Assembly (NCBI GenBank): GCA_022843485.1
Contig: JALHNM010000002.1
Coordinates: 94,238-158,237, forward strand
DNA length: 64,000 nt
Origin: Fimbriimonadaceae bacterium
GTDB lineage: Bacteria; Armatimonadota; Fimbriimonadia; Fimbriimonadales; Fimbriimonadaceae
Direction: 5' to 3'
Below the pieces are notes generated by a model. That model did no database searches, was not told where the DNA came from, and worked only from the letters and a program-made list of their open reading frames with translations. The position numbers and the translations under genes were made by a program. Every line of letters starts with the position of its first letter. The stretch's first letter is position 1. Below are positions 252 to 15,752 of this stretch, one piece after another.

Positions 252-488
252 GTGGTCTGCCGCCGCCGTCGGCCGCAGACCGAGCTCGTCCGCGTTCGTT
301 GGGACGAGACGCAAGGGCGGCTCGCGACCGGGCCACAGGGGACGGGGCGTAGCGTCTACGCCTGCCCAGAGCCGCCTTGTCCACACGGCCTCTTCGAGCG
401 CGGACGGCTCGAACGGGGTCTGCGCCGACCCCTCAGCGACGGGGTGAAGGGATCGTTGTCTCAGGAGATCACGTGCCAGCAGAGGTAA
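252..488 (+). CDS. YlxR/DUF448 family RNA-binding protein
   Basis: Start of the ORF reads RRRRPQTELVRVRWDETQGRLATGP, the YlxR-type N-terminus; located between nusA and infB; its stop overlaps the infB start region. Confidence 0.6.
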   Translation: MVCRRRRPQTELVRVRWDETQGRLATGPQGTGRSVYACPEPPCPHGLFERGRLERGLRRPLSDGVKGSLSQEITCQQR

Positions 489-2428
489 AACCAGCCGGAA
501 TGACTGTCGTCGTCGAAGAGTTCGCCAAGAAACACGGGTTCGTGAAAGACACCGTTCTCGAGGTCTTGGCCGAACTTGGGGTCGAGGTCGAGGGCGGGGC
601 GTTCGAAGCCGACGCCGACGCGCTCGACCTTATCATCGAGGAACTCAAGGGGAGGGTGGCCCCTGCGGCGGACGTACTCGTTCTGGCCCCGGGCCGGACC
701 CCACGCGACCTGGCTGCGGCCATGGGCAAGCCGGACAAGGACGTCCTCAAGACGCTCATGACCAAGGTCAAGGTCATGGCGACCCTGACGACCACGCTCG
801 CCGACGACGTCGCCGAGAAGCTGGCCGCAGAGCTGGGCTTCAAGGTGCGCTGGGAGCAGCCGGAGGCGGCCAAGCCCGCCGCCAAGGCCGCCAAGCCTTC
901 AGGCCCCGCGAAGCCGGGGGAGAAGTCGCTCCGCCCGCCCGTCGTCACGATCCTCGGGCACGTCGACCACGGGAAGACGTCGCTCCTCGACTACATCCGC
1001 AAGACCAACGTCGTCAGCCGGGAGCACGGCGGCATCACGCAGCACATCGGCGCCTACCAGGTCAACCTGAAGGAGGGGACGATCACCTTCCTCGACACCC
1101 CGGGCCACGCGGCCTTTACCGCGATGCGTGCCCGCGGGGCCCAGGTGACGGACATCGCCGTCCTCGTCGTCGCGGCGGACGACGGCATCATGCCCCAGAC
1201 GATCGAGGCGATCAGCCACGCCAAGAACGCCGACGTGCCGATCATCGTCGCCGTCAACAAGATCGATAAGCCGGGCGCCAACCCGGACCGGGTGCTCCAA
1301 CAGCTCACCCAGTACGAGCTTATCCCCGAGGCTTACGGCGGCGAGGTGATCACCTGCCCGGTCTCGGCCCTGACTGGGGAAGGGGTGCCGCAGCTCCTCG
1401 AGATGATCCTGCTCCAGGCCGAGGTGCTCGAACTGAAGGCCGACCCCCGGGGGGCCCTCGAGGGCGTCGTCATCGAGGCCAAGCTCGATAAGGGCCGCGG
1501 GCCGGTGGCGACCGTCCTCGTCGAGGAGGGCACGCTCCACGTCGGCGACGTGGTCGTGATCGGTCGGACGTGGGGCAAGCTCAAGGCGATGACCGACTGG
1601 CAGGGCGAGCGGCTCAAGCTGGCCGGCCCGTCCACCCCGGTCGAGATCCTCGGCCTGGCCGAAGTCCCGATGGCGGGCGACACGATGGAACCGGCCAAGG
1701 ACGAACGCGAGGCCCGCGAGGTCACTACCGCCCGGCAACAGGCCGAACGCGTCCGTGCCCTCACTTCGCCGAAGAGGAAGGTCAGCCTCAAGGACATCCG
1801 CAAGATGGGCGAAGAGGACACGGTCAAGGACCTCAACCTCATCGTGAAGGCGGACGTCCAAGGGTCGGTCGAGGCGGTCAAGGGGCTGCTCGACAAGATC
1901 GAGAACGAAGAGGTCAACGTCCGGGTCATCCACACGGGCGTAGGCTCGATCACCGAGTCGGACATCCTGCTCGCGAGCGCGGCCCACGCTATCGTCGTCG
2001 GGTTCAACGTCAAGCCGGAGGGCGGAGCCAAGATCGAGGCCGAGCGGCAGAAGATCGAGATCCGCACCTACACGATCATCTACGAGCTCATCGAGGACAT
2101 CGAGGCGGCCGTGAAGGGCATGCTCGAACCGAAGTTCGAGGAGCAGTACCACGGCACCGTCGAGGTCCGGATGGTATTCAAGCTCACGAAGGCAGGGAAG
2201 GTCGCGGGCTCGCACTGTACGGACGGCAAGATCACGCGGAACTCGAGCGTTCGCGTACGCCGGGACAAGGAGATCGTGTTCGAAGGGAAGCTGGCCTCAG
2301 TCCGCAACGTGAAAGAGGACGTCCGCGAGATCATCGCCGGTCAGGACTGCGGACTCAAGTTCGACGGGTGGGAGGACTTCAAGGACGGAGACCTCATCGA
2401 GGCGTACGAACTAGTCCAGGTGAACTGA
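473..2428 (+). CDS. infB: translation initiation factor IF-2
   Basis: GTP-binding motifs [32 protein letters not shown]. Track ORF starts at TTG 377; GTG at ~473 preceded by AGGAG (464-468) is the more likely start; ATG at 500 is an alternative. Confidence 0.9.
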
Positions 2429-2444
2429 ACGGGGGCAAGGAGGG

Positions 2445-2744
2445 ATGGGGGGCCGGGCCAGTCGCACTCGAAAGCGGGGGGTCGCCCTCTCTTCCGAGGC
2501 GGTCGCCCTCGTCGAGGCGGCCCTCGACGAGGCGTGGCGCCGGTCGGGACGGCTGGAGAAGCTGACCTGGGAACGCCGGGCGCTGCTGTTGGGCTTGGGT
2601 GAGGCCACGACCAAACGCCTGCTGCAGGGCAAGCCGGTCGATCGGGCGACTATCGACATCGCCTTCGCCCATCTCGGCCGTTGGTGGCTTCAGGGGCAAC
2701 CAGTTCGCCGGAGGTTCCGGGGGAGCGATACGACTTGTCGGTGA
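2445..2744 (+). CDS. hypothetical protein
   Basis: 99-aa ORF directly downstream of infB; no recognisable domain; may be spurious. Confidence 0.25.
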   Translation: MGGRASRTRKRGVALSSEAVALVEAALDEAWRRSGRLEKLTWERRALLLGLGEATTKRLLQGKPVDRATIDIAFAHLGRWWLQGQPVRRRFRGSDTTCR

Positions 2745-2921
2745 CTCTTTACACCTTTCTGGATCTGCTCGTGCAGAAGGTTCGAATGGTAGTGGTCTTG
2801 GTCAATTCGGCTTGAGGCCAACCAATTCAACGTCGGCAACAATGTCGTCCAGACCGCTTCCGTCCTCCAGCCGATCCCCAACAATACTCCTCAGATTTGG
2901 CCTGATGTCCAGGCGCCCGAA

Positions 2922-3215
2922 GTGCGAATAGACACTGTTAACGCACGGGCGGTGAACACAGACCCAAGCGGGAACATGAGCGTGCCCGACCTCTCGGTCA
3001 CGAGCGGGGGAATGGTTCCGGTCGTGCTCGTCACTCGAAACGTCCCGCCCTCTTGGAAGGTGACACTGCGAAACGTGCGGCAGAACACCAGCACTGCCGC
3101 GTTTGTCCAAGCCACTTTCAACCTGGGGACGGGGAAGTGGGAGGCGATGGTCGAGTTGGGCGACAACGGCAACTACCTCGTGGCCAAGGCGGCGGCGCCG
3201 GGGTACCCGGACTAA
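2922..3215 (+). CDS. hypothetical small protein (GTG start) in a lower-GC patch
   Basis: 97-aa ORF in a lower-GC region (~2700-3230, estimated by eye); only GTG available as in-frame start; no recognisable motif. Confidence 0.25.
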   Translation: MRIDTVNARAVNTDPSGNMSVPDLSVTSGGMVPVVLVTRNVPPSWKVTLRNVRQNTSTAAFVQATFNLGTGKWEAMVELGDNGNYLVAKAAAPGYPD

Positions 3216-3227
3216 GGGGCGAACGGG

Positions 3228-3959
3228 ATGCTCTTCGAGCTTTCCCTCGCCCTGGTCGCGGCCTCGGCGGCCGTGCAGCAGGTGCAGGACGTGGCCGTCT
3301 CGCGCGGGGTGGTCGTTGGGGTGAACCGCACCCAGTCGGCCGACGCCGCAACGAGCCGCGGGGTCGTGATCGGGGTCGACCGCACCAGCAGCGGGAACGT
3401 GGCCACCAGCCGCGGCCTGGTGGTCGGGGTCTTCTCGATCTCGAACGCCAACGCCGCCGTTAGCCGGGGCGTGGTCGCGCTCTCGGGGCCGATCCCGCCG
3501 GACAAGGTGACGGTGCGCCTGGGCCGTCGCGAGGCCGGCGACCTGGCCAGCTTCGCCGCCCAGGACGGGAACGTCTACCGCGTCTGCAAGTTCATCGTGC
3601 CGAATCAGACGGTGCCACCGGTGAACGTCGAGGTCGAGGCCGTCTCGCCCGACCCGGTGCTCGGCCGGGTGGGCCTTCGCACGGTGGCCCGGATGACGGT
3701 GACCGGCTCGTTCCAGCAGCGCCTCGAGCTGTGGGACTGGTCCGCATCGCGCTGGGACCCCACGGACACGGTGGCCTCGGCGATCTCGACGACCCTCCGG
3801 ACCCTGGTCGTGCAATCGACCGGCAACGCGAACCGGTACCTGGACCCGAACCGTCGCCTCCGCGCCCGGTACACGGTTCGCCCGACGGGGCCGGTCGGGA
3901 CGAACGCGTGGTGCGTCGAGACGGACCAGGCGGTCTTCCTGACCGAGCCCGGCCCGTAG
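3228..3959 (+). CDS. secreted protein: signal peptide, 4 tandem ~20-aa repeats, shared C-terminal domain
   Basis: N-terminal hydrophobic signal MLFELSLALVAASAAV; repeats (A/T)SRGVV(V/I)GV(N/D)RT...; C-terminal ~150 aa homologous to the C-termini of the ORFs at 25356, 36769 and 46878. Confidence 0.6.
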   Translation: MLFELSLALVAASAAVQQVQDVAVSRGVVVGVNRTQSADAATSRGVVIGVDRTSSGNVATSRGLVVGVFSISNANAAVSRGVVALSGPIPPDKVTVRLGRREAGDLASFAAQDGNVYRVCKFIVPNQTVPPVNVEVEAVSPDPVLGRVGLRTVARMTVTGSFQQRLELWDWSASRWDPTDTVASAISTTLRTLVVQSTGNANRYLDPNRRLRARYTVRPTGPVGTNAWCVETDQAVFLTEPGP

Positions 3960-3967
3960 AACGGCGC

Positions 3968-3999
3968 GAGGCCGGCCGGGGATCCCCCTGGCCGGCCTC
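3968..3999. terminator. GC-rich inverted repeat between convergent genes
   Basis: GAGGCCGGCCGGGGA/TCCCCCTGGCCGGCCTC perfect palindrome between the + gene ending at 3959 and rplL ending at 4023. Confidence 0.5.
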
Positions 4000-4022
4000 G
4001 CCGTTCGCGGTCCTTTCGGGCC

Positions 4023-4412
<390 letters not shown>

Positions 4413-4418
4413 CTTGTG

Positions 4419-5144
4419 TTACTCCTTGGTTTCGGTGTCCGCGGCCGGTTCTTCGGCGGCCTCGGGGGTCGGGGCGGCGTCTTCGGCCGCGGGGGTTTCG
4501 GGGGCAGCTTCGGCAGCGGCCTCGGCGGGGGCTTCGGCAGCAGGTTCCGGGGCAGCGGGTTCCGGGGTCGCGTCGGCTTCGGGGGCCGCAGGGGCCTCCT
4601 CGGTCTTGGCCGGGAGGGGCGAGCCCTCTGCGACCTTGTCCGCGACGGCTCCGATCACGCGGATCGGGTCGGCGTAGAGCGCCTCGATCGTCCCGACGAG
4701 TGTCGAGAGCGGGGCGGCGATAGCGCCGATGACCTGGGCGATGAGGATGTCACGCGGCGGGAGTTTGCTGAACGACTCGACTTGCTTGTCGCTGAGCGGC
4801 TTCCCGCCGATGAGTCCGCCCTTCACCACGAGCGCCTTGTTCGTCTTCGCGAAGTCCAAGAGGAGCTTGGCGATTTCGGGCTCGTGACCCGACCCGAGGA
4901 AGGCGACGGCCGTGGGGCCGCTGTTGAGCTCGGTGGGCAGGTTCTGGGCGTCGTCCCCGATCGCGATCCGGAACAGGGTGTTCTTCACGACGTGGAACTC
5001 GCCGCCCTTGTCCTTGAGCTGCGAGCGCAGCGCTTGGAGTTGGTGGACTTTGAGCCCGCGGTACTCCGCGAAGATCACCCCGGCTGCCTGGTCGTATTTG
5101 GCTTTCGTCTTTTCGATGACTTGCGCCTTTTCGGCAGTCGGCAT
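4419..5144 (-). CDS. rplJ: 50S ribosomal protein L10 with extended acidic P/E/A-rich C-terminal tail
   Basis: True start at internal Met [36 protein letters not shown] (L10 signature); the ~54 track codons upstream are leader read as protein; C-terminus has a ~65-aa PEA-rich low-complexity extension. Confidence 0.9.
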
Positions 5145-5420
5145 AGTTGTGGATCGCTCCTTCCGCCTGGGTAGGGAAGACCCCCCAGAACGGATCAAGC
5201 TCCCGTCCTTACATGGGAAGCGGGAGCTCGATCCAGCGTCCGACCCGACTGGGCCCGACTCGAAACCTCGTTGTCCACGCCACCCTCGGTCGGCCCGTGC
5301 GAGCACGGTTTATGGCCTGCGGCCACCGACGGTCTTCGGAGAGCGGACCGAGTCTAGCACGCCCGGGCCCGGGCTCGCGGGACCCCGCACTGCAGGCCCC
5401 GGCGGACCCGACCGACAATC
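5145..5420 (-). promoter_or_regulatory. putative rplJ 5' leader (L10 autoregulatory leader) and promoter region
   Basis: ~275-nt untranslated stretch upstream of rplJ; bacterial rplJL operons typically carry an L10(L12)4-binding leader. Inferred from position only; no structure checked. Confidence 0.3.
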
Positions 5421-6911: not shown

Positions 6912-7931
6912 TTAGGGGCGGGTCACACTCACCGTGTTGCTGCCCCGCTCGTTCGAGGTCGTCAAAACGACGAAGACCTTGTAGAAAACCCGCGAGCCCG
7001 GGGCGACGAGCCCCTCGTCGGTCAGGAATTGGAGCGCACCGGGCGGGTTATTGTCGATGACGACCGACTCGTCGGCCTTCCAGCGGTCACCAAAGCACGC
7101 ACGCAGCTCGTACTGGTCGAGGTTGGGGTCGGTACTCGCCGTATAGGTCACGCGAGCCTTCCCGAGCGCCACGTCCCATGTCGCGCTGGCGTTCACAGGG
7201 GCCGGGGTGTGGCCGCGAGCGGCCGTGAGCTTCGGCAACGAGGACACGAAGGGGCTGGTCGACGGGAAGCTGGCCAGCACCGCCTGGCGGTACTGCTTAA
7301 GCCGCTGGTAGACGGGGGCAAAAACGGCGTCCCGCTGCTCGCGCGAGAGCTGCGCGACCTGCTCCGCGCTCGCCAAGGCCACGAAAGAGCTCTTCAGCAG
7401 GTTGCTCTCGCCCGTGAAGAGGATGAGCGTGTACGCCCCGGCCAAGAGAAGCGGCGGGGTGAACCCGCTCACCGGCGGGGAGTTCGTGTTCACCGTCGTC
7501 CAGAGGCTGCTCATGTCGTCTAGGGCGTCGCGCCACTTACCGGGGGAGGCGGTAAAGGGCGGCGTCCTGGGGATCGCCCGCTGGTAGCGGGAGCCAGGCA
7601 GCTGGGCGTTGATCGCCGCTCGAAACTGGGCAAAGCGAGGCCGCACGGAGGCACGCCGAACGTCACGCTCGCCCCGAGCCGTCTGCTCGACGTTAAGCCT
7701 AGTCTGCACCTCGGTCACGGCCGCATCGACCGCGGCACGGTCAGTGACGAGGTTGGCCCTAGCATACGCACCGCTGAGCGTCAAAGCCCCAGGCGCAAGG
7801 GCTGTGTTCACGTCCTGCCAGTGCTGCAGGAACTCGTCCATAGTCGGAAGCCACGACGCCACACCAGTGATCGGCATAGTGCGTGCCAGTGTACCACAGT
7901 TAATAGGCGAAGGCCACCTTTTGTGACACAT
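6912..7931 (-). CDS. hypothetical protein
   Basis: 339-aa ORF with no recognised motif; possible alternative starts at internal Met residues (MPITGV, MDEFLQ); lies downstream of the Pnkp ligase ORF after a ~220-bp gap. Confidence 0.45.
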   Translation of the reverse strand: MCHKRWPSPINCGTLARTMPITGVASWLPTMDEFLQHWQDVNTALAPGALTLSGAYARANLVTDRAAVDAAVTEVQTRLNVEQTARGERDVRRASVRPRFAQFRAAINAQLPGSRYQRAIPRTPPFTASPGKWRDALDDMSSLWTTVNTNSPPVSGFTPPLLLAGAYTLILFTGESNLLKSSFVALASAEQVAQLSREQRDAVFAPVYQRLKQYRQAVLASFPSTSPFVSSLPKLTAARGHTPAPVNASATWDVALGKARVTYTASTDPNLDQYELRACFGDRWKADESVVIDNNPPGALQFLTDEGLVAPGSRVFYKVFVVLTTSNERGSNTVSVTRP

Positions 7932-8152: not shown

Positions 8153-9400
8153 CTAGAGCCGCGGGTCGACGGGCTCGCTCTCAAGGGCGAGTACGGCGAA
8201 GGCGCACTCGTGGACCCGTCGCAACGGCTGCCGAGCGACGAACCGCTGGAGCCCTTCGAGCCCGAGCGCGAACTCGCGGAGGGCCAAGGAGCGCTTGGCT
8301 GCGAGCCCCCGTTGGCGGAGGCGGTCCAGGTTGTCCGGTGCAAGGTAGTCCGGGCCGTAGATAATGCGCAAGTACTCGAGTCCGCGGACCTTCAAGGCCG
8401 GTTGCGCCAGCCCCTTGCGCCCTTTGGCGACGAACGACGACGGTTTGACGACCATCCCCTCGCCGCCCGACCCGACCAAGTCCTCCCACCACTCGACCGC
8501 GGCGGCTACGGCGGACTCATCGGCGAGTTCGACCTCGCGCCAGGGCGTTGCGGACAGGAGTTGGCGATCGACGGAGCAGACCGAGGCCAGTTCGTCCATG
8601 TGCTGGGCGTGGGGGAGGACGGCCCAGACCCGTCCCTCCGTCGCCATCACGTGGAACGGGGCCAGCCGGTACCCGGCAAGCCCGTCCACGGGCCAGCAGT
8701 AGCGTCGGTAGGCCTCGACGTACAGGCCGAGGGCGGCGCGCCGGGAGCCCAAGCGGGCGGCGAGGGCATCGACGAGCGGATCGGGCCCCGCCGTCGCCGC
8801 TGCGGCGGAGACGGCGGCCTCGGCGGCGGCCAACGACGCAGCTCCCGCCGCCCCGACGGGGGCGTACTGGGTGCGGAGCAGCTCTTGGGCCTTGGCCGAC
8901 CAGGGCATCAGCTCGCAGTCGATCACTGCCCAGTCCGTGCGCCACGCTTCCCACCGCCCGGACTCACCGATGGCCTTCGCCACTCGACCGATCAGTGCCG
9001 CCTCGAGGTCTAGGTCGGTGAAGAACCGCCGACCGGTGCGGGTGAGGACGATTCCGGTCTCGCCGGTCTCGACTCCGAAGCGCGCGCGGGCCGCTTTGGC
9101 GTCGCGGCAGACGACGACGACGGCCCGCGACCCCATGTGCTTCTCCTCGAGCACGACTCGCTCGACGCCCTCGTCCCGGAAGTAGCTGAACGCCTCCTCT
9201 GGGCGCTCCAGGTAGCCGGGTTCCTTGCTCGTCTGGACGGGTGACATGGTCGGCGGGAGGTAGACCATCCACTTCGGGTTCGCGCCGTAGCGGCTGACGA
9301 CCTCGAGCGCGGCCGAGGAGTTCTGTGCCTGGATCGTCACGCGCGACATGAGGGATGTCTCGACATACCTGCGGCCGAGCACGTCCTCCATGTCGAGCAC
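8153..9400 (-). CDS. pnkp: Pnkp C-terminal RNA-ligase (nucleotidyltransferase) domain, separated from the kinase-phosphatase part by an in-frame stop
   Basis: Contains EEKHMGSR (lysine nucleotidyltransferase motif I-like) and a C-terminal region resembling bacterial Pnkp ligase domains; same reading frame as ORF 9416..10771, separated by TAA at 9416-9418 plus 5 codons. Confidence 0.75.
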   Translation of the reverse strand: MLDMEDVLGRRYVETSLMSRVTIQAQNSSAALEVVSRYGANPKWMVYLPPTMSPVQTSKEPGYLERPEEAFSYFRDEGVERVVLEEKHMGSRAVVVVCRDAKAARARFGVETGETGIVLTRTGRRFFTDLDLEAALIGRVAKAIGESGRWEAWRTDWAVIDCELMPWSAKAQELLRTQYAPVGAAGAASLAAAEAAVSAAAATAGPDPLVDALAARLGSRRAALGLYVEAYRRYCWPVDGLAGYRLAPFHVMATEGRVWAVLPHAQHMDELASVCSVDRQLLSATPWREVELADESAVAAAVEWWEDLVGSGGEGMVVKPSSFVAKGRKGLAQPALKVRGLEYLRIIYGPDYLAPDNLDRLRQRGLAAKRSLALREFALGLEGLQRFVARQPLRRVHECAFAVLALESEPVDPRL

Positions 9401-9415
9401 GTCGTCCGCTTCGTG

Positions 9416-10771
9416 TTAGGCGGAGAGGGTGGCGGCCTGGAGGGGCCGGGCCGGTTCGGCGTAGGTGGCCCGTGCCGGGACGCTGAGGGTCTCGCGCTCC
9501 GGCCAGCGCAGGGCTGTGAGCTTGCCTCCAAAGGCGCAGCCGGTGTCCACGCACAGTGTGTTGTTGAGCCACTGCGGTTCTAGGGTCGGGGTGTGCCCGT
9601 AGACCACGGCCGCCTTGCCTCTGTAGTCGAGCGCCCAGGGGTAGCGGACGGGCAGGCCGAATTCGTCGGACTCGCCGGTCGTTTCGCCGTAGAGGGCGAA
9701 GTCTCGGATCCGCCCCGAGGCCCGTCCTTGGTACCGCTCCTTCATTCCTGCATGCGCGACGACGAGTCTGCCCCCGTCGAAGACCAGGTGTGAGACTAAG
9801 CACCGGAGAAAGGTGCGTAGCCGGCCTTGTTCCTCCCCGGGGAGGGCTTCGACCTGGGCCACGGTCTCGGCCAGCCCGTGGTTGAGGCTGACTTTCTGGC
9901 GGTTCATGTGCTTGAGGAGCTTCTCCTCGTGGTTGCCGGGGACGCAGTAGCCCGCTCCCTGCGCCACGACGCTCATGACGAGGGTGAGGGCGCTGGCGGA
10001 GTGGGGCCCGCGGTCGACGAGGTCGCCGACGAACACGAGTTTGCGGCCTTCGGGGTGGCTCACTCGCCACGACCAGGCGAGTTCTTGCCATGGGCCGTCG
10101 TGCCGGCCGGGCGGCTCGCTGAGTGTGGTGGGTCGGGGCTCGTCGATCCGCTCGACCTCGTAGCCCAGGGCACCGAGGAGTTCGAGGAGCTCGACCAGAC
10201 ACCCGTGCACGTCGCCCACGATGTCGAATGGCCCCCGTTCATGGCTCTTGTCGTGCCAGCCCTTGTCGCGGACGATCTCGACCGAGTCGATTTCCTCGGG
10301 GGTCTTGAGGACTGTCACCGACCGGAACCCCTCTCGATTGAGGCCGCGCAGGCTTGCGCGGAGGTCGCGCGTGTGGTTGCGCACGACGTGCGGCCCGAAG
10401 TCGCGCCCGGGCCGGCCGACGTTGCGCTCTTGGCACACGGCCTCCGGGAGGGCGAAGACGATGGCGACGGCGGGGACGTCGTGCTCCTTGGCGTACTTCA
10501 GGAGCCCGGCCCGTGCGTGCGCTTGGACGTTGGTGGCGTCGACGACGGTCAGACGCCCGCGCCTGAGCCGGACGTCCAGCATCGTGTGGAGGAGTGCGAA
10601 GGCGTCGTTCGTGGCGTCCATCGAGGTTTCGTCGTCCGAGACCGCCGCTCGGCACCAGTCGGACGACAGCACCTCGGTCGGCAGGAAGTGGTGGGCGGCG
10701 AAGGTCGACTTACCGCTGCCGGAGGCGCCGATCAGTACCACGAGGCTCAGGTCGGGGACGTGGACGGTCAT
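9416..10771 (-). CDS. pnkp: Pnkp N-terminal polynucleotide 5'-kinase plus 2',3'-phosphatase (calcineurin-like) domains
   Basis: MTVHVPDLSLVVLIGASGSGKSTFAAHHF (P-loop kinase), then GDVHGC ... GDLVDRGP ... GNHE (metallophosphoesterase motifs). The ~300 codons upstream in the track ORF are an Arg/Pro-rich artefact. Confidence 0.85.
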   Translation of the reverse strand: MTVHVPDLSLVVLIGASGSGKSTFAAHHFLPTEVLSSDWCRAAVSDDETSMDATNDAFALLHTMLDVRLRRGRLTVVDATNVQAHARAGLLKYAKEHDVPAVAIVFALPEAVCQERNVGRPGRDFGPHVVRNHTRDLRASLRGLNREGFRSVTVLKTPEEIDSVEIVRDKGWHDKSHERGPFDIVGDVHGCLVELLELLGALGYEVERIDEPRPTTLSEPPGRHDGPWQELAWSWRVSHPEGRKLVFVGDLVDRGPHSASALTLVMSVVAQGAGYCVPGNHEEKLLKHMNRQKVSLNHGLAETVAQVEALPGEEQGRLRTFLRCLVSHLVFDGGRLVVAHAGMKERYQGRASGRIRDFALYGETTGESDEFGLPVRYPWALDYRGKAAVVYGHTPTLEPQWLNNTLCVDTGCAFGGKLTALRWPERETLSVPARATYAEPARPLQAATLSA

Positions 10772-12132
10772 CGCGTGAACACCGCCATCTGGCTCGGGGG
10801 GCCGTGCTCCTCGTGCTCGGGTCCCACGGGCCGGATTTCGAACGAGTAGCCGTGGGCACCCGCGACCCGGGCGCACCAGGCCTGGAACTCGGCCCGGTCC
10901 CACTCGAACCGGTGGTCGGAGTGTCGCACCGCCCCCGCCTCCATGCCGAAGACCGCGTTGTGCTCCCGGTTCGGCGTGGTGAGGACGACCGTCCGCGGGC
11001 GGGCCGACTCGAAGACGCACCGCTCGAAGGCGACGAGTCGCTCCGGGTCCAGGTGCTCGACGACCTCTACGATCGCCGCCGCGTCGAACCCTTCCAAGCG
11101 CCGGTCGCGATAGACGAGCGACCCATGGATGAGCCGGATCCGCTCGGCCTGGCTCGGTGGGAGCCGGTCGAGTTTGAGCCGCCGCTCGGCGCGGTCCAGC
11201 CAAGCCAGCGACACGTCCATCCCCACGATCTCCTTGAACTGCTTCTCGCGGAGGAGGAGCGTGAGGACTTTGCCCTCGCCGCAGCCAAGGTCGAGGACGC
11301 GGGAGGCTCCGCTGGCCACGAGCGCCTCGGCGGCGGCGGCTAGGCGTTGGTCGTGGAGCCGCTCCTTGGGCTCGGAGGCGGGTTCTTCCGGCTCGGCGTC
11401 GGGGTCTGGCTCGCCGTCCTGGGTGCTCAACCGGGTGAGGGCCTCTCGCGTGAGGTGGGCGGAACGCTCGAGGTAGCCCCGGACGATCGTCGTCTTCGCC
11501 GGGTGGTCGTTGAGCCACCCCTCGCCGGCGCGGAGGAGCTTCTCCACCTCGTTCCCGTCCAGCCAGTAGTGCTTGTCCCGGTCGAGCACGGGGATGAGGA
11601 CGTAGAGGTGGTTGAGCAAGGCCTGGAGCGTGACAGTCGCCCTTAGCCGGACGTCGTAGAGCGAGCTCTGGCCCCACTCCGGGAAGCGGTCGTCCAGGGG
11701 TAGATGCCGTGACTCAACCTCGTAGCCAAGGGGCTCGAAGAGCGAACGGAGCACGGCCTCGCCGCCGCGGCAGGGGACGCAGGGGAGCCCGGCCTCGAGC
11801 GGGATCGGTGTCTGCGCCAGCTCCGGCCGGTCCTTGCTGCGTCCGGCCATGGCGGTCGAGAAGAGGCCCTTGAGGGCGACGCAAAGGTAGGACGAGGCCA
11901 CGTAGGGCCGGTCGTTGACGTACTGGTCGAAGCGTCCTGGCCCTCGGACAAGCCCGACCGCGTCGACCTCGAGGATGAGCGCTGCCGTGCATCGCTCCTC
12001 GGTCCGCTCTGGGAAGACGACGGTCGCCCGGCCGAACGTGAGGTCGGCTTCGTGCGCGCGCCCCGGGTTCTTGTGGAGCAAGTAGCCGAGGTCGGTCGCG
12101 GGGCGATGGGTCGTCGTCAGAGTGAGCAGCAT
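10768..12132 (-). CDS. hen1: bacterial Hen1 RNA 3'-terminal 2'-O-methyltransferase
   Basis: MLLTLTTTHRPATDLGYLLHKNPGRAHEADLTFGRATVVFPE (bacterial Hen1 N-terminus); C-terminal SAM-MTase motif VLDLGCGEGKVLTLLL; stop overlaps the pnkp ATG (ATGA). Confidence 0.85.
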   Translation of the reverse strand: MLLTLTTTHRPATDLGYLLHKNPGRAHEADLTFGRATVVFPERTEERCTAALILEVDAVGLVRGPGRFDQYVNDRPYVASSYLCVALKGLFSTAMAGRSKDRPELAQTPIPLEAGLPCVPCRGGEAVLRSLFEPLGYEVESRHLPLDDRFPEWGQSSLYDVRLRATVTLQALLNHLYVLIPVLDRDKHYWLDGNEVEKLLRAGEGWLNDHPAKTTIVRGYLERSAHLTREALTRLSTQDGEPDPDAEPEEPASEPKERLHDQRLAAAAEALVASGASRVLDLGCGEGKVLTLLLREKQFKEIVGMDVSLAWLDRAERRLKLDRLPPSQAERIRLIHGSLVYRDRRLEGFDAAAIVEVVEHLDPERLVAFERCVFESARPRTVVLTTPNREHNAVFGMEAGAVRHSDHRFEWDRAEFQAWCARVAGAHGYSFEIRPVGPEHEEHGPPSQMAVFTR

Positions 12133-12194
12133 CCGGGAAAGGGCATTTTAGCCTTATAGAAACGTGTCGCCTGGGCTGGCTTAACCGCCACTCG
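12133..12194. promoter_or_regulatory. AT-rich divergent promoter region (hen1-pnkp leftward / hydrolase rightward)
   Basis: GGGCATTTTAGCCTTATAGAAACG is the only AT-rich stretch in this neighbourhood, with TATAGA / TAAAAT-like hexamers on either strand. Confidence 0.3.
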
Positions 12195-13127
12195 ATGGCC
12201 CTTAGCGACCTTCCAAGGGACCACCAGGAAACCCGGTGGATCGCGTGTGCACCGGATCGGCAGGAGGCGGCCTATACTGAGGGGGTGCGCCGTGCCCTCC
12301 TTGCCCTCGCCCTCGCTCCGTTGGCGGCCCTAGCCCAGTTCGCCGTGCAGGAGGTCCCGGACGTCGTCTACACCCAGGCGAGCGGGTTTCCGCAGGCTCT
12401 CGACCTTTATCTGCCCTTTCCGGTGACGAGCACCGCCCGCCCGGCCCTGGTGCTGGTCCATGGCGGCGGGTGGATGTTCGGCGACAAGAGCGATTTCGCC
12501 GACTGGGGCCGGTATTTCGCGGCCCGGGGGTACGTGTGCGCCTCGGTCGATTACCGGTTGACGCCGACCCACATCTGGCCGGCCCAGCTCGACGACGTGC
12601 AGGCCTCGGTGCGCTGGCTTCGCCGCCACGCCGTGGCCCTTTCGCTGTCGCCGGAGCGGATCGGGACGGTCGGGGGCTCGGCGGGCGGGCACCTGGCGCT
12701 GTTTCTGGGGGCTCGCGAGACGCTGAACGACTTCGACCCCGACCTGCGGGGGTATTCGTCGCGGGTCCGGGCGGTGGTCGATATCTATGGGCCGACGGAC
12801 ATCGGCGACCTGACGGAGTTCCGGCGCGACCTGTGGGTCCTGGTGTTCGCGCTGATGGGCCAGCCCTGGTCGCGGCAGTCGCTCGTGTACCGGGCCGCCT
12901 CGCCGATCACCTTCGTCACGCCCGACGACGCCGCGACGCTCGTGTTCCAGGGCGCGCTCGACGACGTCGTGCCGCCGTCCCAAAGCCGTCGGCTGGTCGA
13001 CCGGATGCGGGCCAGCGGTGTGCCGGTGGAGTACTTCGAGTTCGCGGACCAAGGCCACGGCTTCGACCCGCCGACGAACACGTTCGTGATCGAGACCGCG
13101 GCTCGGTTCCTCCAGGGCACGCTCTAG
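12195..13127 (+). CDS. alpha/beta hydrolase (esterase/lipase, BD-FAE / fold-3 family)
   Basis: LVLVHGGGWMFGDKSDF and nucleophile elbow GGSAGGHLALFLG. Confidence 0.8.
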   Translation: MALSDLPRDHQETRWIACAPDRQEAAYTEGVRRALLALALAPLAALAQFAVQEVPDVVYTQASGFPQALDLYLPFPVTSTARPALVLVHGGGWMFGDKSDFADWGRYFAARGYVCASVDYRLTPTHIWPAQLDDVQASVRWLRRHAVALSLSPERIGTVGGSAGGHLALFLGARETLNDFDPDLRGYSSRVRAVVDIYGPTDIGDLTEFRRDLWVLVFALMGQPWSRQSLVYRAASPITFVTPDDAATLVFQGALDDVVPPSQSRRLVDRMRASGVPVEYFEFADQGHGFDPPTNTFVIETAARFLQGTL

Positions 13128-13167: not shown

Positions 13168-14556
13168 TTAGTTGGGTCGAGGGGCGGTTCGCCCGGTGGC
13201 GTCGGCCGTCTTCGGGAAGACGAACTCGAAGTTCCTTCTGTTCCACTCGGAGTCCTCGCCCCGGCCGTCCGCAGCGATCCCGTCTGGCTGACCATTGGAG
13301 ACTCTGACAATGTCCCCATCGACGCGGAGTTGGTACGGGCCGCCCGAGTAGGGGTCCGTAGCTTGGAACCCAGCCTCAGCCAAGGTCTTGGGAAACCGGC
13401 CCTTCGCGTGCTTGAACTCGACGGCCGCCATCAAGCCCCTGAACGAGCCGACCAGGGCCTGATGCCGGAGAAAGGCGTCTCCCATCTGGCCGAACACGGG
13501 CATCAAGAATCGGTTTATCTCGAGGGTGGGGTCTCCTTCCCGCGTGAACACGCCCACCACCCTCTTTAGGTGCGGCGCGAACAGTCGCGGATCTGAGACG
13601 GCTTCCCGATCGGAGAACACCTCGGACCACATCTGGAGGGATCGGGCTCGATACGCCTTTCGCGCCGTGTCTCGGCCGACGCCGAAGGGGAGCACCCGTC
13701 GGCGGTGGCCGGCGAGCTCGTCCGGTTCGGGCGGGTCCTGGTCGAAGGATAGCGAGCCATCCATGATCTCGTCGATCCCAGCCTCGATCACGGCGGTGGA
13801 GAACAGCGTTTCGCTCCGCAAGTACCATGCGAAGTCGAGCGGCGGGGTGGCTTGCTTCGCGGCCAGATCGGCGAGTGATCGGTGGAAGGCGGCGTCCTCC
13901 GGCCGGGTCGCGAGTGCCCACTCCATCTGGCGAAGTAGGGCCAGGTCGCAGACGACCCGAACGAACGCGCCTATGACTACAGGCTCCGATCCGACGAAGC
14001 GGCTCAGGGCCTGAGCGGTTCTGAAGTCTTCGATCGCGGCGGCAGTATCGCCCTCGAGGGCGCCCAACGTCGCCCGGAGCGAGAGTGCCCGAACTAGCTG
14101 CTTGAACGAGCTGAACTCGGGGAAGCGGATCGTCCAAGGCTTCGGGCTTTCCCAGTCTCTGCCGAAGTCGACCCTTGGCCGCTGGGTGGCGCGGGCGGCG
14201 TCCGCCATGGCCGGGGCCAGCTCGGCCAGGATCTCGCGGGCGGGCCCGACGGCGGCCCCGGTCGGGTCCTTGAGGGCCTTGTCGATCTCTTCGGCCCAGC
14301 CGCGCCGGCTCCTGCTCAAGGCCGTCAGCTTGCCGAAGGCCTCTCGAAGCGCCGGGGCGGCGTTCTCCTCCGGCGTCACGGGCGGGTTCGGCTTCAGCGC
14401 CGAGCCGTCGAGGACAAGCCCAAGGCGCTTGGCCTCCGCCTCTGCCGCCGGCAGCTCCCTCGCCGCTTGCTCGAACGAGCGGGCGGTCTCGCTCTGGCAC
14501 CCGACCAGCGCGAGCACCGCCACCCAAACCGCACACGTGACGTCGAACCGCCTCAT
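13168..14556 (-). CDS. hypothetical secreted protein / lipoprotein
   Basis: True start at MRRFDVTCAVWVAVLALVGCQSE (signal peptide with lipobox-like LVGC); the ~216 upstream track codons are artefact; no known domain. Confidence 0.55.
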   Translation of the reverse strand: MRRFDVTCAVWVAVLALVGCQSETARSFEQAARELPAAEAEAKRLGLVLDGSALKPNPPVTPEENAAPALREAFGKLTALSRSRRGWAEEIDKALKDPTGAAVGPAREILAELAPAMADAARATQRPRVDFGRDWESPKPWTIRFPEFSSFKQLVRALSLRATLGALEGDTAAAIEDFRTAQALSRFVGSEPVVIGAFVRVVCDLALLRQMEWALATRPEDAAFHRSLADLAAKQATPPLDFAWYLRSETLFSTAVIEAGIDEIMDGSLSFDQDPPEPDELAGHRRRVLPFGVGRDTARKAYRARSLQMWSEVFSDREAVSDPRLFAPHLKRVVGVFTREGDPTLEINRFLMPVFGQMGDAFLRHQALVGSFRGLMAAVEFKHAKGRFPKTLAEAGFQATDPYSGGPYQLRVDGDIVRVSNGQPDGIAADGRGEDSEWNRRNFEFVFPKTADATGRTAPRPN

Positions 14557-14663
14557 GACAACAGTATAGGCCGAAAAGTTACGCTTTGCAACACTCCTTC
14601 TTCGGCCGAGGCCCGCCAGCGCAGGGTCGCTTCCCGCCAGCCCGCGCCGACGGGGCCAGAGCC

Positions 14664-15752
14664 TCAGAGCGTGCCGCGGAGGGCTTGCTCGCGTTCGATC
14701 GACTCGAAGAGAGCCTTGAAGTTGCCCTTGCCGAAGCTCTTTGCGCCCTTGCGGTGGATGATCTCGTAGAACAGGGTCGGGCGGTCCGTGATCGGCTTGG
14801 TGAAGATCTGGAGGAGGTAGCCCTCGTCGTCCCGGTCGACCAGGATGCCGAGGTCGGCGAGGACGTCGATGTCCTCGTCGATCTTCCCGACCCGATCGGG
14901 GAGCATGTCGTAGTACGTCTTCGGCACGGAGAGGAAGTCCACCCCCCGAGCCCGCAGGCGCGAGACGGTGTAGACGATGTCGTCGGTGCGCATCGCGACG
15001 TGCTGGACGCCCGCGCCGCCGAAGAACTCTAGGTACTCGTCGATCTGCGACTTCTTCTTGCCCTCGGCGGGCTCGTTGATCGGGAACTTGACCCGCCCGT
15101 TGCCGCTCGCCATCACCTTGGACATGAGGGCGGTGTAGTCGGTCGAGATGTCCTTGTCGTCGAAGCTGATGAGGTTGGCGAAGCCGAGCACGTCCTCGTA
15201 CCACTTCACCCAGACGTTCATCTTGCCGAGCTCGACGTTGCCGACGCAGTGGTCGACCTCGATGATCCCGATCCCGTCGCCGGGCTGGTTCTCGGCGCGG
15301 AAGCCGGGGAGGAACGGGCCGTTGTAGGCGTCGCGGTTGAGGAGGGAGTGGACGACGTTGCCGTAGGTGCGGATGGCGGCGTGGCGGACCTTGCCGTGGT
15401 CGTCCTCGAGCGTGCGGGGCTCGACGGCGCCGATCGCGCCGCGGTCCGTCGCGGCCTTGTAGGCCCAGTCCACGTCGTCGACCTCGAAGGCGATGTCCTG
15501 GACGAAGTCGCCGTGCTCGGCGATCAGCGGGGCCATCGGGTGGCCGGGCCGGAGCGGGGCGGTGAAGCAGAGGGTGAGGTCGTTCTGCTTGAGGACGTAG
15601 CTCGCCTCGTCGCGGCTGCCGGTTTCGAGGCCCGAGTAGCCGGAGATCGAGAACCCGAACGTGTGCTGGTAGAAGAAGCTGGACTGCCGGGCGTTGTTGA
15701 CGTAGTGCCGGACGTGGTCGACCCGGCGGATCGGGAAGGTGTCGGTGCTCAT
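14664..15752 (-). CDS. hppD: 4-hydroxyphenylpyruvate dioxygenase
   Basis: Two VOC-fold modules, RRVDHVRHYVNN and HIAFEVDDVD-type motifs, length 362 aa typical of HppD. Confidence 0.8.
   Translation of the reverse strand: MSTDTFPIRRVDHVRHYVNNARQSSFFYQHTFGFSISGYSGLETGSRDEASYVLKQNDLTLCFTAPLRPGHPMAPLIAEHGDFVQDIAFEVDDVDWAYKAATDRGAIGAVEPRTLEDDHGKVRHAAIRTYGNVVHSLLNRDAYNGPFLPGFRAENQPGDGIGIIEVDHCVGNVELGKMNVWVKWYEDVLGFANLISFDDKDISTDYTALMSKVMASGNGRVKFPINEPAEGKKKSQIDEYLEFFGGAGVQHVAMRTDDIVYTVSRLRARGVDFLSVPKTYYDMLPDRVGKIDEDIDVLADLGILVDRDDEGYLLQIFTKPITDRPTLFYEIIHRKGAKSFGKGNFKALFESIEREQALRGTL

Follow-up and report, generated by a model that had tools for sequence, protein, structure and literature searches.

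Is a bacterial RNA repair cassette in which Pnkp is encoded by two open reading frames (ORFs) a new kind of system, or a familiar one that has been damaged? The question is raised by a stretch of 64,000 nucleotides (nt) from a Fimbriimonadaceae bacterium of the Armatimonadota (contig JALHNM010000002.1, positions 94,238 to 158,237), called here the window, in which three consecutive ORFs of the minus strand fill positions 8153-12132. An earlier note had described them as a hen1 gene followed by a split pnkp, and had considered the whole an unusual variant of the Hen1-Pnkp system. To judge from its sequence, the locus is a Hen1-Pnkp RNA repair operon of the canonical bacterial kind, placed in an Armatimonadota (Fimbriimonadaceae-like) chromosome. 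As for the split itself, it is most likely the product of a recent nonsense mutation within the linker of pnkp, and not a new kind of system.

Known members of this family form a (Pnkp)2(Hen1)2 tetramer, their Hen1 methyltransferase is manganese dependent and the repair junction that they leave is 2'-O-methylated. In the pathway described in the literature, the Pnkp phosphatase takes the 2',3'-cyclic phosphate off ribotoxin-cut RNA, the terminal 2'-OH exposed in this way is methylated by the Hen1 methyltransferase, the 5'-OH is phosphorylated by the Pnkp kinase, and the nick is sealed by the Pnkp ligase once the N-terminal domain of Hen1 has unlocked it. It is this N-terminal module of Hen1 that binds and activates the ligase domain of Pnkp (PMC3675462, PMC4411300).

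Profile searches recognised all of these parts in the window, a full-length Hen1 with its N-terminal and methyltransferase domains and the kinase, metallophosphoesterase and ligase modules of Pnkp, so that the earlier identification of the cassette holds. Hen1 matched the NCBIfam equivalog TIGR04074 with 653.8 bits (cut-off 340), covering the model end to end (positions 1-462), and Pfam PF12623 (Hen1_L) over amino acids (aa) 1-235 (8e-104), besides class I methyltransferase models. Among the PDB structures it aligned to the Anabaena Hen1-N 4dqz (1.3e-76) and to the Clostridium thermocellum methyltransferase 3jwg (7e-65), and in the latter alignment the motifs EVxEHLD and H..DHRFEW are kept. 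The first pnkp ORF (hereafter N-part) corresponds to positions 1-428 of the 851-position equivalog TIGR04075. It matched the Pfam models AAA_33 (7e-30) and Metallophos (PF00149, 5e-13) and the C. thermocellum Pnkp (CthPnkp) structures of the kinase (4gp6, 6e-54) and the phosphatase (4j6o, 1.5e-91), with the P-loop GASGSGKST and SSDW of the kinase and the GDVHGC, GDLVDRGP, GNHE, AHAG and GHTP motifs of the phosphatase all present. The second ORF (C-part) corresponds to positions 440-851 of the same equivalog and covers PF16542 (PNKP_ligase) completely (5.8e-167, model 1-377/377). It aligned over aa 2-415 to residues 3-427 of the ligase domain of Anabaena variabilis Pnkp (AvaPnkp-C, chain 4drf_A, 1.4e-148) and keeps the motif I KHMGS (KHMGSRAV). 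Each part of the cassette is present as a single copy in the window. As a separate detail, the N-part carries an insertion of ~17 residues relative to the CthPnkp phosphatase (…EPRPTTLSEPPGRHDGPWQELAWSW…), at aa ~205-235 (about 10065-10160), between GDxHG and GDxxDRG.

The locus thus has the two-domain Hen1, the three Pnkp modules with their motifs, and hen1 and pnkp adjacent and co-oriented. What it lacks of the family is Pnkp as one trifunctional polypeptide of ~850-870 aa, since here there are two products of 451 and 412-415 aa, each of which falls short of the TIGR04075 cut-off (659.6 and 601.8 bits versus 750). The description of Pnkp as two ORFs was correct, and both lie in the same frame, one stop codon apart: the stretch 8156-10771 holds exactly one stop codon. 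The N-part ends ...GCC TAA, and the sequence goes on as CAC GAA GCG GAC GAC GTG CTC GAC ATG GAG..., with five sense codons before the GTG.

In relatives, the linker between phosphatase and ligase follows the consensus ...Y(Y/A/C)EPxRPF...L(S/T)AQQxxDDxLDxEDVxGK, and in the window it reads YAEPARPLQAATLSA*HEADDVLDMEDVLGR, the asterisk being the stop. We compared it with 80 species-representative genome loci (GTDB) and 80 metagenome loci that encode relatives of the ligase part, in which the parts were placed by tblastn. The codon aligned with the TAA was a Gln codon in 99 out of 121 loci (CAG 73, CAA 26). The pnkp junction was uninterrupted in 148 of the 149 related loci where it could be read, the exception being L165, where the frame shifts some 14 residues past the start of the ligase part. 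The two codons at which the ligase fragment might start, GTG 9400 and ATG 9391 (the latter is the start of the 412-aa database gene call of this fragment, P0001), correspond to unremarkable V/L and M/I positions in the DD(V/L)LD(I/M)EDV segment of relatives. Their pairing with the anti-Shine-Dalgarno sequence is -3.2 kcal/mol in both cases, weaker than the window median and to be compared with -7.8 for rplL and -6.1 for the pnkp ATG. This measure discriminates little in the window (median -5.05 kcal/mol for true 5' ends versus -4.9 for internal decoys), and for this reason the missing Shine-Dalgarno sequence is weak evidence. Together, the single in-frame TAA on a conserved Gln codon, the lack of a Shine-Dalgarno sequence behind it and the uninterrupted junctions of the relatives suggest a point lesion in a canonical gene and not a distinct architecture, so that the split does not support the reading of the locus as an unusual variant.

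Gene order and overlap do not support it either. The note had correctly placed hen1 upstream of pnkp, with the hen1 TGA and the pnkp ATG overlapping as ATGA (...ACGCGATGACCGTC..., in codons ...ACG CGA TGA CCG...). When we looked at the 123 loci with a complete hen1 and pnkp start, hen1 was upstream in 122, and downstream of pnkp only in L078. Among the former, 50/123 had a 4-nt stop/start overlap, 18/123 another overlap and 27/123 a gap of 0-120 nt; in a further 27/123 there were one or more extra genes between hen1 and pnkp. The literature describes the two ORFs as adjacent and co-oriented (Figure 1A, PMC3675462) and always in the same operon (PMC3675462, PMC4411300). By these counts and this description, hen1 first with an ATGA overlap is the norm, and the impression that it was unusual has to be corrected.

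The extra genes found between hen1 and pnkp are worth recording on their own. They code for one or two RlaP (PF10127) nucleotidyltransferases, a HEAT-repeat protein, or an HD+AAA_33 kinase with a PF09414 RNA ligase (L018 2898-4660, L081 3078-4720, L059 3647-4640, L082 1014-2647, L026, L077, L042 749-2640 and L084 122-1792), and in L004, L025, L030 and L058 the inserted proteins had no family match. The window cassette has none of those inserted genes.

The simplest reading of the lesion would be a CAA to TAA transition that hit the first Gln codon in the conserved motif of the linker and interrupted a canonical pnkp. CAA is the minority Gln codon here (90/478 in the window, 10/31 in the cassette). 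A stop of this origin would be young and would not have been selected as a gene boundary. Hen1 and the 451-aa kinase-phosphatase fragment should still be made. The ligase fragment, on the other hand, would require terminating ribosomes to start again at GTG 9400 or ATG 9391, and its level would probably be lower. The capacity for sealing would then be diminished or abolished, except if the fragments can act in trans.

At alignment columns conserved to at least 97% among relatives, we counted 3 substitutions out of 83 in Hen1, 3 out of 116 in the N-part and 6 out of 118 in the ligase part, the last being the highest value among the 79 sequences compared (median 1). The signal of decay in the ligase half is weak: the excess is small, and hen1 and the N-part, with 3 substitutions each, are divergent too. 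Actually, all three parts are found at the divergent end of their sets and have low hidden Markov model (HMM) scores. Other observations also weigh against a recent lesion in a gene that is simply being lost. There are no further stops or frameshifts, and every catalytic motif checked is kept. Besides, the stop falls in the interdomain linker, which represents roughly 5% of the codons, ~10 residues past the end of the phosphatase domain as crystallised and 5 codons ahead of the first residue in the AvaPnkp-C construct, which begins at the same LDxxDVLGK as the ligase fragment of the window. CthPnkp(1-425) is an active kinase and phosphatase, and the ligase domain self-adenylylates, its sealing activity being unlocked by Hen1-N (PMC3675462, PMC4411300). 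Since the break matches the boundaries of CthPnkp(1-425) and AvaPnkp-C, both fragments of the window contain complete units that are autonomous in vitro.

A further argument of this type comes from other loci in which the ligase is separated from the rest of Pnkp. In L167 an in-frame TAA (3956-3958) replaces the Glu of YxEPxRPF, leaving hen1 (466 aa), N-part (432 aa) and C-part (421 aa) otherwise intact. In L168 an in-frame TAG (3992-3994) lies directly upstream of LTVQQQ, and hen1 is frameshifted as well. Both were found through ligase-only database proteins picked by their length, so they give no measure of enrichment. In L053 (4481-7239), from a Candidatus Angelobacter metagenome-assembled genome (MAG), hen1 is followed through a GTGA overlap by a 439-aa ORF whose ~10 first residues match the kinase N-terminus (KITVPELSL) and continue into the linker and the ligase; the kinase-phosphatase has been deleted in frame and the cassette consists of Hen1 plus ligase only. 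L133 (2974-5730, metagenome contig Ga0066388_100007165) has a 918-aa ORF in which a complete Hen1 is fused in frame to the Pnkp ligase, with no kinase-phosphatase in the locus. From the linker stops of L167 and L168 and the ligase-only partners of L053 and L133, it may be that the separation of the ligase module is tolerated. Frameshifts were also seen in two unrelated lineages, at about 4500 in L165, already mentioned, and at about 4237 in the phosphatase domain of L163.

Other candidates for recurrent splits were discarded. Among the C-only proteins of 405-421 aa, P0010, P0086 and P0079 belong to assemblies full of errors, in which there are several frameshifts, and P0072 sits at a contig end. 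Nor could the peaks at 411-416 and 486-487 aa in the distribution of protein lengths be used as a measure of enrichment, as they reflect conserved in-frame start-like codons chosen by gene callers.

These data bear on whether the split Pnkp could be a natural one that still works. The nonsense codon in the linker would have turned a two-protein system into one of three polypeptides, Hen1, kinase-phosphatase and a separate ligase made by termination-reinitiation, which together would heal, methylate and seal, the split being tolerated or even selected. Restarting translation 16-25 nt past a stop is mechanistically possible, and in-frame start codons do begin 16 and 25 nt past this one. The break at the domain boundary of fragments that are active as recombinant proteins (PMC3675462), the intact motifs of the three proteins, the separable ligase modules of L167, L168, L053 and L133, and the existence of a natural three-protein system with analogous logic, Pnkp1-Rnl-Hen1 (PMC4411300), are all in its favour. 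Nevertheless, we regard it as unlikely. Nothing at the second ORF resembles an evolved start, the stop lies on a codon that relatives use for Gln, and practically all of these relatives keep the protein fused. L167 and L168 were selected by protein length and in L168 hen1 is broken too, while the three linker stops differ in codon (TAA, TAA, TAG) and position and each belongs to a singleton cluster. In addition, the covalent link is thought to set the ligase-Hen1 units on the kinase dimer in the canonical complex (PMC3675462, PMC4411300).

An error of sequencing, assembly or consensus would leave no split at all, the true codon being CAA or CAG within a normal Pnkp of ~867 aa. One changed base would suffice to produce the stop, the source is a 445-kb NCBI contig of a lineage represented in our searches only by MAG-like records, and the rest of the gene is undamaged. 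However, the 64-kb window gave no second interrupted coding frame (the three other hits of the scan were gene boundaries or mirrored frames), which argues against a generally error-ridden assembly. Error-ridden long-read loci of our set (L001, L073, L082 and L084) show frameshifts in several genes and not clean in-frame stops, and assembly consensus sequences seldom contain substitution errors, so an artefact is, in our opinion, improbable. The search for close relatives returned none above 62% identity, either in the protein search with the ligase part (its own protein aside) or in the GTDB and metagenome locus scans. A wobble-degenerate DNA pattern across the linker had 0 matches in metagenome contigs, and the three cassette proteins are all singleton clusters at 90%. 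Far less probable still is programmed recoding, by which the TAA would be read through (e.g. as Gln) to give a full-length Pnkp, perhaps tuning the ratio of healing-only to full-length protein. The replacement of a Gln codon and the presence of stops in the same linker in two other lineages would fit with it. Against it, TAA terminates 13 of the 42 window ORFs that show a coding-type pattern of guanine plus cytosine (GC) at third codon positions (GC3), and is therefore an ordinary stop in this genome; the window tRNAs are only an ordinary Gln-CTG and Leu-TAG, the two hits of an Rfam search that gave no known recoding or other RNA element near the stop. UAA is generally the least leaky stop in bacteria, and the diversity of codons and positions among the three linker stops also speaks against recoding. 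A recent nonsense mutation in a canonical pnkp is the explanation that we favour, with a working split and a consensus error as its serious competitors.

When the locus is set beside the known systems, it agrees with the Pnkp-Hen1 family in every feature tested but one, the single Pnkp polypeptide. It shares with the A. variabilis and C. thermocellum Pnkp-Hen1 the set and order of domains and a hen1 directly upstream and co-oriented, and differs from them in the in-frame TAA that interrupts pnkp at the linker and in its Armatimonadota host, with the closest database Pnkp at 62% identity. The Pnkp1-Rnl-Hen1 heterohexamer of Capnocytophaga gingivalis (PMC4411300) resembles the window in having the healing enzyme, the ligase and Hen1 as separate polypeptides, and there too Hen1 binds the ligase. 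But its Pnkp1 is T4-like with a phosphatase from another superfamily, the identity of its Rnl and Hen1 to Pnkp-C and AvaHen1 is just ~20%, and its hen1 lies a long way from the pnkp1-rnl operon (PMC4411300), whereas the window has a calcineurin-like metallophosphoesterase and contiguous ORFs. Membership in that system was rejected. The ligase of the window matched Rnl (4xrp_B) with 1.5e-09 over ~80 aa, to be compared with the AvaPnkp-C value given above; its Hen1 matched 4xrp_C with 1.3e-06 versus 1.3e-76 for AvaHen1-N; and the phosphatase belongs to PF00149, in a locus where the genes are contiguous. The tRNA repair of phage T4 by Pnkp and Rnl1 likewise heals with a kinase/phosphatase and then seals with an ATP-dependent ligase that is a separate protein (PMC4411300). 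It has no Hen1, hence no 2'-O-methyl mark, and its phosphatase superfamily differs from that of the Pnkp metallophosphoesterase (PMC4411300). The T4 proteins are not orthologous to those of the window, where TIGR01663 matches just 104 aa of the kinase P-loop region (6.7e-07).

Table 1. Features of the hen1-pnkp cassette and its immediate neighbours (positions of the window; lengths and domain limits in amino acids)
Feature	Position	Strand	Details
hen1	12132..10768	-	454 aa, ATG start; matches to TIGR04074, PF12623 and PDB 4dqz/3jwg
Hen1 N-terminal domain, aa 1-235	11428..12132	-	PF12623; aligns to AvaHen1-N of the 4drf/4e6n complex
Hen1 methyltransferase domain, aa 253-453	10774..11376	-	CthHen1 3jwg alignment; EVVEHLD and HSDHRFEW
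ATGA, hen1 TGA (10770-10768) over pnkp ATG (10771-10769)	10768..10771	-	From the sequence; signature of translational coupling
pnkp N-part	10771..9416	-	451 aa; polynucleotide 5'-kinase aa 2-167, binuclear metallophosphoesterase 2',3'-phosphatase aa 172-441; ends with TAA
In-frame TAA in the phosphatase-ligase linker of pnkp	9416..9418	-	Aligns with the first Gln of L(S/T)AQQ
Candidate restart codons, GTG 9400-9398 and ATG 9391-9389	9389..9400	-	Begin 16 and 25 nt past the last base of the stop
pnkp C-part, ATP-dependent RNA ligase (adenylyltransferase)	8153..9400	-	KHMGS motif I lysine; 415 aa from GTG, 412 aa from ATG 9391
Intergenic region between hen1 and the divergent alpha/beta hydrolase gene	12133..12194	.	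62 nt, likely promoter region
Divergent alpha/beta hydrolase (BD-FAE/Abhydrolase_3)	12195-13127		
339-aa protein	6912-7931	-	No family match (Pfam, NCBIfam)

We have also examined the region in which the cassette is located. IF-2 (377-2428) is 74-78% identical to the IF-2 of Fimbriimonadaceae and Armatimonadota MAGs, which makes the window a piece of a chromosome from this lineage. The loci with the nearest IF-2 relatives, L085 and L086, have nusA-ylxR-infB in common with it and show no synteny downstream of infB. The earlier note had seen the cassette in an accessory context. The neighbours are in part as it described, an alpha/beta hydrolase and proteins without family, together with a GT2 glycosyltransferase; on the other hand, infB and rplJ/rplL are 3-8 kb away and the GC content of the cassette (69.6%) equals the window average (~68%), so that its composition gives no sign of recent transfer. 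Some other features of the surroundings may be listed here. No more than 1.6 kb separates infB from rplL/rplJ, genes of the opposite strand (377-5306), and the rplJ ORF has 295 aa with the L10 domain only on aa 56-154, so its true start is probably further downstream. Three likely genes had no Pfam or NCBIfam match, at 13168-14640 (-), 6912-7931 (-) and 3228-3959 (+), the first being recognisable by its GC3 phase alone, as part of a stop-to-stop ORF of 678 aa that extends into the glyoxalase gene 14664-15752.

The AT-rich divergent promoter proposed upstream of hen1 is plausible. The intergenic region is only mildly AT-rich (56% GC versus 68% for the window) and no consensus sigma-70 promoter was found in it. 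It contains the minus-strand hexamers TATAAG and TAAAAT 12-25 nt ahead of the hen1 ATG, and the TAAAAT just 12 nt from the start suggests that the leader of hen1 could be very short or absent. The start of hen1 has no sequence similar to a Shine-Dalgarno (+2.1 kcal/mol), and the divergent hydrolase gene has no obvious one either. A search for terminator consensus also found none, and the folding of the 3' intergenic region did not stand out from that of shuffled sequence (z = -0.54).

With this locus, a well-characterised family of RNA repair systems gains a member from the Armatimonadota, and the nonsense codon cuts Pnkp just where biochemists have divided it to prepare fragments that are autonomous. 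If there is no cooperation between the pieces in vivo, we would be observing the early stage of a pseudogene in an accessory system of the defence type. If they do, this would be a natural experiment on whether the covalent link between healing and sealing enforces the order of methylation before ligation. Finally, if the split protein works, then together with L167, L168, L053 and L133 it would indicate that the ligase-Hen1 pair is the obligate core of the system and the healing module a detachable part, and the cassette would be a living intermediate toward systems such as Pnkp1-Rnl-Hen1.

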